A DNA stretch of 64,000 nucleotides from Clostridia bacterium (GTDB lineage: Bacteria; Bacillota; Clostridia; CAKSNL01; HGM11501): positions 32,001-96,000 of the forward strand of contig JAZQAZ010000047.1 of the NCBI GenBank assembly GCA_045545475.1. The letters are read 5' to 3'. The position numbers and the translations under genes were made by a program. Below the pieces are notes generated by a model. It did not search any database and was not told the origin of the DNA. It worked only from the letters and a program-made list of their open reading frames with translations. The number at the start of each line of letters is the position of its first letter. Within the stretch, counting starts at the first letter, position 1. Shown one piece after another: positions 24,621 through 32,178 of the stretch.

Positions 24621-24753
24621 TTGACAAAAGTGTGGGCATGTGTTATTATATTCAAGCACACCAAGTGGTTACAGAGGCGAAAAACTTAATAAAAAACTTT
24701 TTTCAAAAAAATGAAAAAAAGTTCTTGACAAACGGTTCTGATTATGGTATAAT
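24621..24753 (+). promoter_or_regulatory. Tandem strong sigmaA promoters (P1 24621-24649, P2 24725-24753) with upstream A-tracts, driving the tRNA operon
   Basis: TTGACA-17-TATTAT and TTGACA-17-TATAAT, both with an extended -10 TG. Confidence 0.8.
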
Positions 24754-25148: not shown

Positions 25149-25222
25149 GGCGCCATGGCCAAGTGGTAAGGCAAAGGTCTGCAACACCTATATCCCCAGT
25201 TCGAGTCTGGGTGGCGCCTCCA
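25149..25222 (+). tRNA. tRNA-Cys(GCA)
   Basis: GGCGCCA...TGGCGCC-TCCA; anticodon loop CTGCAAC; U73 discriminator. Confidence 0.95.
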
Positions 25223-25223
25223 G

Positions 25224-25256
25224 AAAAAAGACTTGTCAGTTGACAAGTCTTTTTTT
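25224..25256 (+). terminator. Intrinsic terminator of the tRNA operon
   Basis: AAAAAAGACTTGTCA-GT-TGACAAGTCTTTTTTT. Confidence 0.85.
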
Positions 25257-25432
25257 AATGAAATTTGCCTGCGTCAAGTGAAATACGCTACGCGTATGAA
25301 ATATTGCTTCGCAATGTGAAATATGCCTTGCGGCATATGAAAAGGCAAATTTTATTTCACATTTTTCTGTAAGAAAAATATTTCATAATCCGTAGGGTTA
25401 TTTCATATCAACGAAGTTGATATTTCATTAAA
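25254..25432. repeat. Comb-like multi-hairpin repeat element: 5x TGAAA(T) followed by 4x ATTTCA, spaced by small hairpins, closed by an 11-bp inverted repeat
   Basis: TGAAAT at 25259, 25279, 25297 and 25317, and TGAAA at 25338; ATTTCA at 25354, 25380, 25400 and 25422. Outer IR is TTTAATGAAAT/ATTTCATTAAA. Confidence 0.85.
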
Positions 25433-25483
25433 TATTTACATATTGCTAATTCTATGTTAGAATGTTAGCAGAGGTGTTTAGTT

Positions 25484-25831
25484 ATGAAGGAAAACAAACT
25501 TATAGATTTATCTACGGATTTAGCAGTTAAAATTATAAAACTCTGTGAAACGATAAAAGGACATTATTCACTTGTAAATCAGTTAGAAAGAAGTTCTACA
25601 TCAATCGGGGCAAACATTCACGAAGCTAACTATGCTCACGGAAAGAACGATTTTATTGCAAAATTACAGATTGCTTTGAAAGAATGTTATGAAACAGAAT
25701 ATTGGCTCGAGCTTTTTGTAAAGTCAGAAATTTTAGATAGAGAAACTGCGAAAAATTTATATAATCAATGTGGTACAATTCGAAAAATGTTGATTTCTTC
25801 AATCAACACTGCAAAAAAGAACAGTAATTAG
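25484..25831 (+). CDS. Four-helix-bundle protein (TIGR02436 / 23S rRNA IVS-protein / Avd-like fold)
   Basis: LVNQLERSSTSIGANIHEANYAHGKNDFIAKLQIALKECYETEYWLELF signature. Own promoter TTTACA-17-TAGAAT (25435-25463) and RBS GAGGTG. Confidence 0.9.
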   Translation: MKENKLIDLSTDLAVKIIKLCETIKGHYSLVNQLERSSTSIGANIHEANYAHGKNDFIAKLQIALKECYETEYWLELFVKSEILDRETAKNLYNQCGTIRKMLISSINTAKKNSN

Positions 25832-25851
25832 AGCTGGCATCTAAACCATTC

Positions 25852-26035
25852 GGCGCCGTCCAGAAAAACAAGCACCATAAAACAGACTCGAACGAAGTCA
25901 TAGGAAAAAATGCGGAGCATTTTGACGTAGTTTTTCAAAACTGCGTTTTGAAAAATCGAGTCTGGGTGGCAAACATCGCAAGGACTAAAAAGTCTGCTAT
26001 AAAGTCATAGGCAAAAATGTAAAGCATTTTGCCGG
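25852..26035. repeat. Partial copies of the tRNA-Cys 3' end plus a degenerate ~32-bp direct repeat with hairpins
   Basis: GGCGCCgTCCAGAAAAA (25852-25868) versus GGCGCCTCCAGAAAAA (25213-25228). TCGAGTCTGGGTGGC (25956-25970) is identical to 25201-25215. AAGTCATAGGnAAAAATG...AGCATTTTG occurs at ~25895 and ~26002. Confidence 0.75.
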
Positions 26036-29568: not shown

Positions 29569-32178
29569 ATGAAGCATTTTTGTCAGGCAAAGGAATCGGT
29601 TATGGAATTTTTCAAAACCGATGAAAAGACGGGACTGAGTGAAGAAAGAGCAGAAAAACTTAAGGAAGAGTATGGTCTCAACAAATTAAAGGAAAAGAAA
29701 AAGAAAACAACAATGGAGCGTTTTCTTGACCAGTTCAAGGATGCAATGATACTTATTTTGATTGCTGCCGCAATTGTTTCATTCGTTGTAATTTGTGTCG
29801 AAAAAAACTGGGGAGAGCTTTTCGAGCCGGCACTTATCGTATTGATTGTTATCTTAAATGCGGTTATGGGCGTGTACCAAGAGGGTAAGGCAGAAAAGGC
29901 ACTAGATGCACTTAAGAGTATGTCTGCACCCCACGCAAGAGTAATCCGTGGCGGCGAAGAAAAAATCATTGATGCAAAGGACCTTGTGCCCGGGGATATA
30001 ATCCGCCTTGAAGCGGGAGATTTTGTGCCTGCGGATGCAAGACTTCTTCACAGTGCAGGCTTAAAATCGGAAGAATCCGCTCTCACAGGAGAATCTGTTC
30101 CTTCGGAAAAGGATTATCTTGCAGAGGTTGGGGAAGATGCTCCCATTGGCGACAGATTAAATATGGTTTATTCCGGATGCAGCATTACTTACGGAACAGC
30201 GACTGCTGTTGTTACCGCAACTGGTATGGATACCGAAATGGGGATGATTGCAAATCTTCTTGATAACGAAGATGAGGGACAGACTCCGCTTCAGCAAAAA
30301 CTTGCCCAGCTCGGTAAATATCTTGGAATTATGGCACTTGCAGCTTGTGCAATCATATTTTTTGTGGGGCTTACAAACGGAATAGCAGTACTTGAAATCT
30401 TTATGACTGCGGTTTCTCTTGCTGTATCGGCAATTCCTGAGGGACTTCCTGCCATTGTTACCATTGTGCTTTCAATCGGAGTACAGCGTATGGTAAAGAA
30501 AAATGCTCTTATCCGTAAGCTTCCTGCGGTTGAAACATTGGGCGGAGCATCTGTTATATGTTCGGATAAAACTGGAACGCTTACACAAAACCGTATGACT
30601 CTTACAAAGGCATATGTGGACGGCTTTTCTGAGACGGAAGGCATAAGCACTAACAACACCGAAGCGGTAAGAAAGCTTCTTATGTTAGGGGCACTTTGCT
30701 GTGACGGATCGGTTGTATTTGATGGTGATGAAGAAAAGCATATCGGCGACCCTACAGAAACTGCCATCGTTCTTGCGGCACATAAAAACGGTATGCCGAA
30801 GGAAAAAATTAATGAAAAGTTTCCTCGTCTTGCTGAAATTCCCTTTGACTCCGACAGAAAACTTATGTCAACCGTAAATCTCATGGACGGCAGAAAGATA
30901 GTAATCGTAAAGGGTGCCTTTGATATGATGGCAGAAAGGTGCGTAAAGGGAAATCTCAAAGCGGCGAAAAACTTCACAGAAGCTATGAGCAAAGACGCTT
31001 TAAGAGTTTTGGCAATAGGATATAAGGAAATTGACGAAGTACCCGAAAATCCCACATCCGAAGCTCTTGAAAACGGACTTACATTTATGGGACTCGTAGG
31101 TATGATTGACCCACCGAGACCCGAAGCGAAGGATGCGGTGGCACTGTGTAGAAGAGCCGGAATCAAGCCGGTTATGATTACAGGAGACCACGTTGTTACT
31201 GCCTCCGCAATCGCAAAAGAGCTTGGAATTCTTTCGGAGGGCGACAAGGCGATTACAGGAAGCGAACTTGACGCAATGACCGACAGAGAGCTGGATGAGC
31301 AGGTTGAAAACATTTCGGTTTATGCAAGAGTATCTCCCGAAAATAAAATAAGAATAGTTAAGGCGTGGCAGAGAAAAGATAAGGTTGTATCAATGACAGG
31401 TGATGGAGTAAACGATGCTCCTGCCCTTAAAGCTGCCGACATCGGCTGTGCTATGGGTATTACAGGCACAGATGTTGCAAAGGGTGCATCGGATATGACT
31501 CTCACGGACGATAACTTTGCAACCATAGTTGATGCTGTGAGAGAGGGCAGAGGCATTTACGAAAACATCAAAAAGGTTGTCGGATTTTTACTTGGGACCA
31601 ATATCGGCGAGGTAATAACCGTGTTTATGGCAATGCTTTTGTGGCATAAAACACCCCTTCTTTCTATGCAGTTACTTTGGATAAACCTTGTTACAGACTC
31701 ACTTCCCGCTATTGCTCTCGGGATGGAGGCTGTTGAAAGCGACGTAATGGATAAAGCACCCAAGCCGAAAAACGAAGGTATCTTTGCTGGCGGTCTTGGC
31801 ATCCGTGTGATACTTCAAGGTATTATGTTTGCAGTTCTTACCCTTTTCGGATTTAAGATGGGAGAAAATGTGACAGGAACATTGGAAGGCGGCCAGACAA
31901 TGGCGTTTATGATACTTGCCCTTTCCCAGGTTGTTCAGAGCTTTAATATGAGGAGTGAACATTCTCTCTTTAATATCGGAATGTTTTCAAATAAAAAGTT
32001 AAACGGTGCGGCAATTGTCTCTGTACTCCTTGTGGCTCTTGTTTTATTCACTCCCTTGAGAGTGGCATTCGGACTTGTGATACTTCCCTCTAAGCTTTAC
32101 CTTATAGCAGTTGGTCTGATATTTGTTCCGCTTCTGGTTATTGAAATAACAAAGGCGTTAAGGCATATTAAAAAATAA
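29569..32178 (+). CDS. P-type IIA cation-transporting ATPase (Ca2+/Mn2+, YoaB/PMR1-like)
   Basis: TGES, IPEGLP, DKTGTLT, MITGD and GDGVNDAPAL motifs; C-terminal TM block. Confidence 0.95.
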   Translation: MKHFCQAKESVMEFFKTDEKTGLSEERAEKLKEEYGLNKLKEKKKKTTMERFLDQFKDAMILILIAAAIVSFVVICVEKNWGELFEPALIVLIVILNAVMGVYQEGKAEKALDALKSMSAPHARVIRGGEEKIIDAKDLVPGDIIRLEAGDFVPADARLLHSAGLKSEESALTGESVPSEKDYLAEVGEDAPIGDRLNMVYSGCSITYGTATAVVTATGMDTEMGMIANLLDNEDEGQTPLQQKLAQLGKYLGIMALAACAIIFFVGLTNGIAVLEIFMTAVSLAVSAIPEGLPAIVTIVLSIGVQRMVKKNALIRKLPAVETLGGASVICSDKTGTLTQNRMTLTKAYVDGFSETEGISTNNTEAVRKLLMLGALCCDGSVVFDGDEEKHIGDPTETAIVLAAHKNGMPKEKINEKFPRLAEIPFDSDRKLMSTVNLMDGRKIVIVKGAFDMMAERCVKGNLKAAKNFTEAMSKDALRVLAIGYKEIDEVPENPTSEALENGLTFMGLVGMIDPPRPEAKDAVALCRRAGIKPVMITGDHVVTASAIAKELGILSEGDKAITGSELDAMTDRELDEQVENISVYARVSPENKIRIVKAWQRKDKVVSMTGDGVNDAPALKAADIGCAMGITGTDVAKGASDMTLTDDNFATIVDAVREGRGIYENIKKVVGFLLGTNIGEVITVFMAMLLWHKTPLLSMQLLWINLVTDSLPAIALGMEAVESDVMDKAPKPKNEGIFAGGLGIRVILQGIMFAVLTLFGFKMGENVTGTLEGGQTMAFMILALSQVVQSFNMRSEHSLFNIGMFSNKKLNGAAIVSVLLVALVLFTPLRVAFGLVILPSKLYLIAVGLIFVPLLVIEITKALRHIKK

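Follow-up and report, generated by a model that had tools for sequence, protein, structure and literature searches.

The 64,000-nucleotide stretch analysed here, referred to throughout as the window (Clostridia bacterium, assembly GCA_045545475.1, contig JAZQAZ010000047.1, forward-strand positions 32,001 to 96,000), contains a 179-nt element between a tRNA-Cys gene and a gene for a small four-helix-bundle protein of the PF05635/TIGR02436 family. This element is a back-to-back pair of the Gut-1 RNA motifs of Rfam (RF01706), which together form one polar module that we term the comb. The Gut-1 motif itself is known; what was found in no paper that we searched is the union of the two halves in one unit placed ahead of PF05635/TIGR02436 genes. 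Together with a leading hairpin and the PF05635 gene, the comb constitutes an accessory unit that is present behind tRNA-Cys in this genome and absent from there in three sister species.

A polar pair of Gut-1 motifs

The comb is built of an arm of 4–5 (G/A)TGAAAT words followed by an arm of four complements, with hairpins of free sequence after every word (Table 1). In the window, the left arm bears TGAAAT at 25259, 25279, 25297 and 25317 and TGAAAA at 25338 (spacings 20, 18, 20 and 21), the right arm bears ATTTCA at 25354, 25380, 25400 and 25422 (spacings 26, 20 and 22), and each of these words precedes its own mini-hairpin. The whole is enclosed by a perfect 11-nt inverted repeat (25254–25264 with 25422–25432), and two further perfect 11-nt inverted repeats, centred on words, lie within it. 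An earlier note on this DNA, made without database searches, had described the five left units, the four right units and the closing repeat, all of which can be read in the sequence; its six spacer hairpins are likewise present (that of TAATCC and GGGTTA with one G-T pair), and the pairing that it had drawn between 25261 and 25343 was recovered as the complementarity of the start box to the centre of the comb. The latter is an alternative long-range helix closing the left arm, and complementarity of start and centre is also seen, in different letters, in combs of other word types. A partner-specific extension of the word helices was considered and rejected, as the 11-bp helices follow from the AT-rich starts of all hairpins and the nested partner is not singled out.

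Table 1. Features of the unit behind tRNA-Cys, in window coordinates
Feature	Position	Strand	Basis or remark
tRNA-Cys (GCA)	25149–25222	+	ARAGORN; Rfam tRNA 61.4 bits
Terminator-like hairpin with A-tract and T-tract flanks and perfect 15-nt arms	25224–25255		inverted repeat
Left arm of comb, five words with short hairpins between	25254–25348	+	contains Gut-1 match 25276–25348
Start box (word 0 and 5' arm of first hairpin)	25257–25270	+	complementary to centre 25343–25356 (14 nt, 93%)
Right arm of comb, four complementary words with longer hairpins	25349–25432	−	Gut-1 match 25349–25430, minus strand
Promoter-like site, TTTACA-17-TAGAAT with TG	25435–25463	+	10/12 matches; consensus match only
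115-aa four-helix-bundle gene, PF05635/TIGR02436, Avd-like	25484–25831	+	profile matches
Right-end motif GGCATCTAAACCATTC	25836–25851	+	recurs behind combs or behind the gene at other loci
Remnant of older tRNA-Cys 3' end and left arm of its terminator	25852–25876	+	23/25 positions as in the tRNA-Cys tail of sister genome G007

Both halves of the comb reach the gathering score of the Gut-1 model (50 bits), the left one on the plus strand with 66.3 bits (E = 2.5e-13) and the right one on the minus strand with 50.3 bits (E = 2.7e-9). The consensus of the model is a threefold succession of UGAAAU and a hairpin, with which the comb aligns, covarying hairpins included. The earlier note had taken the element to be unannotated and had named a match to an already described RNA family as counting against this; such a match is what both halves display, and the kind of element must be regarded as described. 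Of its overall interpretation, the conserved fold and the link to the neighbouring gene stand, and the undescribed kind and a general link to tRNA genes do not.

Weinberg et al. (2010; PMC2864571) placed Gut-1, reported from human-gut metagenomes only, among the probable non-coding RNAs that have no cis-regulatory role. The three short hairpins, the conserved UGAAAU linkers and the covariation in the hairpins are common to that motif and to the arms of the comb. The differences are: 1) Gut-1 as published is a single arm whose function is unexplained, whereas here two arms of inverted order make one polar unit. 2) The linker word of Gut-1 is just one of at least nine interchangeable words. 3) The unit described here goes with a PF05635 gene and, within its clade, with the tails of tRNA genes; the Rfam entry is without a second inverted arm and without genomic context. 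Full-text searches of the literature found no link of Gut-1, or of hairpin/word arrays, to PF05635 genes, though supplementary texts may bear on the point.

The Rfam model, which detects the GTGAAAT type only, gave matches in 17 of the 41 genomes searched, and at 14 sites in the 2.74-Mb assembly to which the window belongs. These 14 sites share one architecture, in which the end of a tRNA or other gene is followed by an A-tract, a hairpin, a T-tract, the start box and then two arms; the first has 3–4 repeats of word and short hairpin, the second 3–4 repeats of complementary word and longer hairpin, and between them lies a centre that can pair with the start box. Comb units in this genome lie 3' of the tRNA-Cys, -Tyr, -Arg, -Lys and -Leu genes; the copies at the end of contig C48 and at the start of contig C31 overlap by 141 nt and are one locus (here and below, G, C and L are our labels for genomes, contigs and loci, G000 being this genome). 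A comb detector that demands exact words and is agnostic as to which words they are called 9 places in the real genome versus 0, 0 and 0 in three window-shuffled genomes; one of its places, on C34, was rejected on inspection, being an ordinary hairpin pair and not a comb.

The earlier note had asked for both strands to be folded. As RNA, the plus strand reaches −51.6 kcal/mol versus a shuffled mean of −31.9 (z = −5.39) and the minus strand −49.9 kcal/mol versus −27.6 (z = −5.84), and on each strand none of 200 shuffles folded as well. From an alignment of 17 related GTGAAAT-type combs (A1), RNAalifold returned three word-word helices and four hairpins, and thereby arrived independently at the ladder of word-word helices with side hairpins that the earlier note had proposed. 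Compensatory double changes are seen in 21 of the 44 pairs of this alignment; paired cells amount to 96.5% versus 84.1% in shuffles, and double-changed cells to 81 versus 22.9, neither value being equalled in 500 shuffles, and slid controls are 30–49% paired. The double changes fall almost all in the hairpins, and the word helices hardly vary within a word type. The hairpins are thus preserved by compensatory change, which bears out the earlier suggestion of a fold selected despite divergence in sequence.

Hairpin statistics, spacings and polarity were counted on 62 parsed combs. At least 4 perfect pairs are formed by 160 of 228 distinct hairpin sequences (62/99 on the left and 98/129 on the right, versus 4% and 12.6% of their shuffled versions). 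Left hairpins average 4.7 pairs and have U-rich loops, and right hairpins average 6.2 pairs and have GAA or AAA loops; the arms are not mirror images of each other, the polarity being fixed with the short hairpins first and the longer ones second. Words are spaced by 14–21 on the left and 22–26 on the right, and by 7–9 in arrays that we call toothless; even spacings are favoured, as expected if stems lengthen by whole pairs. Mismatches on the gene strand comprise 11 G-T versus 6 A-C, and a choice of strand from wobble pairs was given up, these being too few to decide.

PF05635 genes and clade-specific words

The link to the adjacent four-helix-bundle gene, which the earlier note had proposed from this one locus, holds in the genome, in the family and in the class. 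In this genome tblastn finds four PF05635 genes, all of them immediately preceded by a comb. The window's family, searched in 14 genomes, which are also those of the order-level search, gave 24 PF05635 hits, of which 19 have a comb directly upstream (18 whole or cut by a contig end, 1 partly deleted); the remaining five are two truncated genes with comb remnants, two genes with toothless palindromic word arrays and one with a tandem-word bracket. Across the class, PF05635 occurs in 142 of 399 genomes. The 30 best-scoring class hits (L083–L112) represent a different, 'classic' subfamily and have no combs; by a strict count, at least 3 exact tandem words stand just upstream of the gene in 10 of these 30, versus 45 of 844 background windows, and many of these genes have runs of 7–9-nt tandem words immediately ahead of the ribosome-binding site.

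As an unselected class sample we took the next 80 listed hits that had no internal stop, had not already been sampled and did not belong to the window's family. Of these, 30 were called by the strict detector (one toothless by eye) and the rest were read by eye, the 7 rows labelled as tandem by script not all being checked in this way. Hairpin combs precede 50 of the 80 genes; in 46 of these combs both arms are upstream, in the other 4 just the left one. A further 3 genes have toothless palindromic arrays, 23 have arrays of tandem words and 4 have nothing. Polarity towards the gene is identical in 57 of the 62 parsed combs. Among genomes outside the window's family, PF05635 is present in 4 of 4 with a Gut-1 hit versus 5 of 23 without (hypergeometric 0.007, by our own arithmetic).

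In the tandem-word clade, words of the same kind as those of the comb bracket the gene without forming hairpins: in 18 of 23 units, and in 0 shuffled controls, two or more words precede the gene and two or more of their reverse complements follow it. The arms of the 23S rRNA intervening sequences that bear this gene family and are excised by RNase III are laid out likewise (PMC4990558). Similarly, in three of the four left-only combs (L175, L167 and L123) the right arm, with its hairpins, lies behind the gene. In the light of these bracketing arms and split combs, the comb of the window is the 'closed' form of such a unit, the arms being adjacent to each other in front of the gene.

Nine word types were distinguished, each complementary between its two arms. 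Paralogues within this one genome use three different words: GTGAAAT/ATTTCAC in the units of the window and of tRNA-Tyr, GCTAAAT/ATTTAGC in the unit on C18 and AATGATG/CATCATT in that on C24. When 12 word labels are mapped on a quick tree of 102 proteins, 15 changes suffice (minimum 11; shuffled mean 69.6; 0/200 shuffles as low), the GCTAAAT clade (16 rows, 10 host families) and the GTGATAT clade (13 rows, 9 host families) each forming one branch. The hairpins are replaced over time and the words are not, and several word/protein pairs that are not interchangeable coexist in one genome.

A number of copies deserve separate mention. A fifth PF05635 copy in this genome, cut by a contig end, has a C18-type comb at 99% identity and another left flank, and a third, truncated copy is also present; copies of the GCTAAAT-type unit become alike just ahead of their own leading hairpin. 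At G000:C42, ~2830–2960, a toothless-clade four-helix-bundle gene is cut after about six codons and fused to the distal part of a GTGAAAT comb with 90% identity to that of the window; this is a recombinant remnant. At the orthologous tRNA-Tyr locus (G000:C48, 43181–43264, versus G002:C14; L028/L053) entire hairpin modules of the right arm are swapped between species and the words are identical, which suggests conversion among copies with the words serving as homology. At G011:C10:49518–50156 (L013, L029) a complete double comb is present in three identical copies, one every 230 nt. In some units the four-helix-bundle gene overlaps or abuts a downstream gene, which is of the Pol-beta-type nucleotidyltransferase kind in L068 and L082, a small pyrophosphatase-like open reading frame (ORF) below the Pfam cut-off in L060 and L061, and a 156-aa ORF of no assigned kind in L070.

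Insertion behind tRNA-Cys and other host transcripts

The tRNA-Cys gene of the window is the last of a five-tRNA operon (Val, Asp, Phe, Gly, Cys) with a promoter-like site at 24725–24753 (12/12 consensus matches), and the unit begins 1 base past its CCA. The left end of the repeated unit is the terminator-like hairpin, whose stem differs in sequence at each locus; the same layout of A-tract, hairpin and T-tract is found 3' of tRNA-Tyr, -Arg, -Lys and -Leu in this genome. The earlier note does not mention this hairpin, nor the promoter-like site that lies 3 bases past the comb and 21 bases ahead of the start codon. In the sister genomes G004, G007 and G011 only a terminator stands behind tRNA-Cys, with neither comb nor gene; G010 has at this place a comb of another word type without a gene, G009 a palindrome and G001 a stub. 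On the right-hand side, the remnant of an older tRNA-Cys 3' end, whose gap-tolerant score against the tail of G007 is 54 versus a shuffled maximum of 49, offers a marginal indication of the right edge of an insertion of ~630 bp (25223–25851). A direct repeat of the tRNA-Cys 3' end was rejected as proof of insertion, its score within the window being 31 versus a shuffled maximum of 33. As the support for repeat and remnant against shuffles is weak or marginal, the case for an insertion rests mainly on the three empty sites. No transposase, integrase or other recombinase was found in the ~630-bp unit.

Two further observations concern the right-hand surroundings. A motif of the form GGCATCTAAA..TTC occurs after combs or after the gene in the window (25836–25851), on C9 and C18 of G000, and in L011, L063, L069 and L190; in L063 and L190 it is continuous with a −10 box, after which come a hairpin and another comb, and in G009 it is half of the palindrome immediately 3' of tRNA-Cys. 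It may mark the boundary of the unit, belong to a promoter or be a target. Further downstream, at 25880–25970 with a partial second copy near 25996–26035, lies a two-hairpin element ending in a copy of the T-arm and acceptor strand of tRNA-Cys (25956–25970). The same element is located 3' of tRNA-Cys in G004; in G011 a perfect direct repeat of 20 nt, taken from the tRNA-Cys 3' end, encloses it. By its looks this is another small insert directed at tRNA-Cys and unrelated to the first.

The earlier note had also suspected an association with tRNA 3' ends, and this proved to depend on the word type. A tRNA gene precedes 13/17 units of the GTGAAAT type, 4/6 of the ATGAAG type and 3/4 of the AATGATG type, versus 0/13 of the GTGATAT type and 1/16 of the GCTAAAT type; the other clades follow protein genes or carry a promoter of their own. 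The tRNA targets include Cys, Tyr, Arg, Lys, Leu, Met, Gln and Val, the host gene is the transfer-messenger RNA (tmRNA) in L031 and L120, and the paralogous C24 unit lies ~400 nt 3' of a 5S rRNA gene.

This residence invites comparison with the intervening sequences (IVSs) of 23S rRNA, in which classical PF05635 members sit and which are excised by RNase III (PMC4990558; bioRxiv 10.1101/2024.02.27.582315). With ORF-bearing 23S IVSs, such as the Coxiella burnetii IVS with S23p (PMC4990558), the units described here have in common PF05635, complementary arms, residence with stable RNA and a sporadic distribution, and the ORF of the window is of the S23p type (94.9 bits for PF05635, cut-off 33.8; 105.1 bits for TIGR02436, cut-off 24). 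Those IVSs are inside rRNA and have their arms around the gene, whereas the window unit is behind tRNA-Cys and not in a helix of 23S or 16S rRNA, and has both arms upstream of the ORF, with no ATTTCA array 3' of the gene. The arms of the window consist of repeated words with side hairpins and hence form no long plain duplex, unlike those of the 23S IVS.

A candidate word reader and its rivals

The nearest solved relatives of the 115-aa protein are PDB 2RLD (E = 1.7e-23) and, by profile, 2GSC (E = 1.8e-4); each of these entries has 5 chains, and the protein is probably a pentameric oligomer. PF05635 has been called functionally uncharacterised (PMC10053308; bioRxiv 10.1101/2024.02.27.582315) and is stated to resemble Avd (PMC10053308), which as a pentamer binds a UNCG-capped RNA stem-loop through all five protomers (bioRxiv 10.1101/2023.10.23.563531). 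The four-helix bundles are homologous, and the Avd pentamer grips RNA with the same residues of several protomers (bioRxiv 10.1101/2023.10.23.563531; PMC10053308). Avd sits in a diversity-generating retroelement, whereas the locus of the window is without a nearby reverse transcriptase, template or variable repeat; likewise, the ligand proposed here is an array of repeated words, that of Avd one long stem-loop. The single RVT_1 gene of the genome lies on contig C10 (L193; G000:C10:140366–143917); it encodes a reverse transcriptase of 318 aa and forms a trio with ORFs of 373 and 84 aa, a layout that resembles a diversity-generating retroelement and has no PF05635 gene beside it. Retro-mobility of the unit was set aside as being without direct support, given that the genome's one reverse transcriptase belongs to this trio on another contig. 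The PADLOC libraries of defence systems yielded no match for the 115-aa protein.

The five-chain relatives, the resemblance of PF05635 to Avd and the RNA binding of Avd lead us to favour a reading at the level of RNA, to which we would give about an even chance, namely that the comb is a structured RNA of the sense strand and that the neighbouring Avd-like protein, probably a pentamer, reads its repeated words. The Gut-1 identity of both halves, the selected hairpins, the link to the gene within and outside the window's family, the clade-specific words and the complementary arms described above also speak for it. The comb would be made as sense-strand RNA, at this locus through read-through from the strong tRNA operon; its hairpins would either hold the heptamer words out single-stranded, or the arms would zip word-to-word into a ladder, so that the second arm could sequester the words displayed by the first. 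The words would be the recognition sites of the neighbouring protein, with about one word per protomer, and the complex might control or process its own transcript, by autoregulation or by an IVS-like separation from the host transcript. Ring proteins such as TRAP read spaced RNA words (GAG/UAG repeats). The comparison is one of working principle only, with no homology implied, but it makes one short word per subunit conceivable, and the 4–5 words per arm are near the presumed number of protomers. Two observations speak for RNA: units of the GCTAAAT type open with an extended −10 box and a hairpin, and a further promoter would not fit in ahead of the gene, which places their comb in the 5' untranslated region; and single-arm arrays are followed by a terminator in genome G039. 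The small excess of G-T over A-C mismatches on the gene strand leans the same way.

Several observations weigh against this reading. 1) A promoter-like site lies between comb and gene in the window and in the whole GTGATAT clade, which would leave the comb outside the primary transcript of the gene unless the terminator-like hairpin is read through. 2) Combs without a gene are common, those of this genome being on C9, C31/C48, C4, C20 and C8; G013 (94% complete) and G003 (75%) have combs but no PF05635 gene, and G007, G009 and G004 hold combs without a gene of the matching clade. 3) Comb and gene are linked, so that a shared tree is expected from joint inheritance alone and is no proof of recognition. 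4) With the word helices invariant, pairing of word with word is inseparable from a protein that reads both orientations. 5) The excess of G-T over A-C mismatches is weak. 6) The four RNA runs cover practically only the tRNA genes, mostly through contigs of other organisms, and hence are silent on the comb.

It is conceivable, and we think it has a limited but real chance of being right, that no sequence-specific protein is involved and that the arms pair into an IVS-like processing or insulating stem, which would be cleaved, by RNase III for instance, or would hold off exonucleases and so separate the tRNA precursors from the downstream message, the protein doing something else. Complementarity of the arms does extend to every one of the nine word types, the arms lie on either side of the gene in the 18 tandem-word units noted above, the founding PF05635 members occur in rRNA inserts excised by RNase III (PMC4990558), the units lie behind tRNA, tmRNA and 5S rRNA genes, and the ladder is the consensus that RNAalifold returned. 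Yet a plain stem has no need of repeated, clade-specific words, and the fixed polarity, with short U-rich-loop hairpins followed by longer GAA-loop ones, is left unexplained. Moreover, the hairpins of the two arms of the window are not mutually complementary, and only word helices of 7–11 bp are possible, which is short for RNase III.

That the array acts instead as DNA, as an operator-like or iteron-like site, double-stranded or extruded, used by the four-helix-bundle protein or by a factor of the host to regulate the abutting promoter, we hold to be improbable. The promoter-like −35 box does begin just 3 bases past the final word of this comb and adjoins the final word in all of the GTGATAT clade, the direct and inverted sets of words recall the layouts of iterons and operators, and the element is a quasi-palindrome of which both strands fold equally well. 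However, the ranges of word spacing given above are not locked to the helical repeat, and on this ground the phasing of an iteron or operator was rejected; compensatory change in the hairpins needs a single-stranded state, the comb is downstream of the promoter in the GCTAAAT-type units, and the known ligand of Avd is RNA.

We regard it as distinctly improbable that the arms are the terminal inverted repeats of a small mobile DNA element, akin to a miniature inverted-repeat transposable element where the gene is missing, that moves into the tails of stable-RNA genes. Such movement would account for the empty tRNA-Cys sites of the three sister genomes and the other word type in G010, for the tRNA 3' end left over at the right edge, for the at least 8 comb loci in this genome, for GCTAAAT units that are 99% identical with differing left flanks, for the three identical tandem copies in G011 and for the exchange of whole hairpin modules between orthologous loci. 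Against it, the ~630-bp unit contains no transposase or integrase, the many tRNA targets misfit a single att site, the direct repeat within the window is weak in comparison with shuffles, the gene lies outside the pair of arms in 46/50 combs, and at neither C9 nor L011 was a target-site duplication seen. A free-standing small RNA, as first proposed for Gut-1, that lies near the gene by chance is very improbable: the classification of Gut-1 as a non-cis-regulatory non-coding RNA (Weinberg et al. 2010; PMC2864571), the single-arm copies with their own terminator in G039 and the many gene-less copies would suit it, but the association with the gene is far beyond chance, polar and clade-specific. 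Finally, a CRISPR array, with its long constant repeats and non-palindromic spacers, was rejected, as no more than 7 nt are constant here, what varies between them folds on itself into hairpins, and the second half is inverted.

Among known repeats, the repetitive extragenic palindromic (REP) elements with their BIME and REPIN forms, and BOX-type repeats, are also multi-copy intergenic hairpin modules of alternating orientation, often situated behind terminators. In these the palindromes are conserved, whereas in the comb conservation is confined to the 7-nt linkers and the hairpins vary freely; PF05635 is the partner gene of the comb, the RAYT transposase that of REP-type elements, no search having been made for RAYT genes.

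A still broader proposal, which we put forward only tentatively and consider unlikely to hold in full, is that the PF05635/Avd-like proteins are oligomeric word readers, and that combs, tandem-word brackets and classical rRNA IVSs make up a single class of selfish cassettes that ride as passengers on transcripts of stable RNAs and of the host, carrying clade-matched 7-nt words and spreading via an RNA or tRNA-primed intermediate and not by a DNA integrase. The placement of units right after the CCA of many tRNAs and the leftover tRNA 3' end at 25852–25876 would then be traces of this mode of spread.

Gut-1 has been an orphan motif since 2010, and PF05635 is a widespread family with one studied relative, Avd; their pairing turns the two into one testable system, in which the three natural word/protein pairs of a single genome (GTGAAAT, GCTAAAT and AATGATG) are built-in controls of specificity. 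Should the protein turn out not to read the word, the comb remains a clear example of an RNA or DNA fold that is conserved across hundreds of hairpin sequences. If it does read it, nature would have in it a small reprogrammable protein that recognises words of 7 nt, which would account for the clustering of accessory genes behind tRNA, tmRNA and rRNA genes in gut Clostridia and would make the rRNA intervening sequences part of a larger family.

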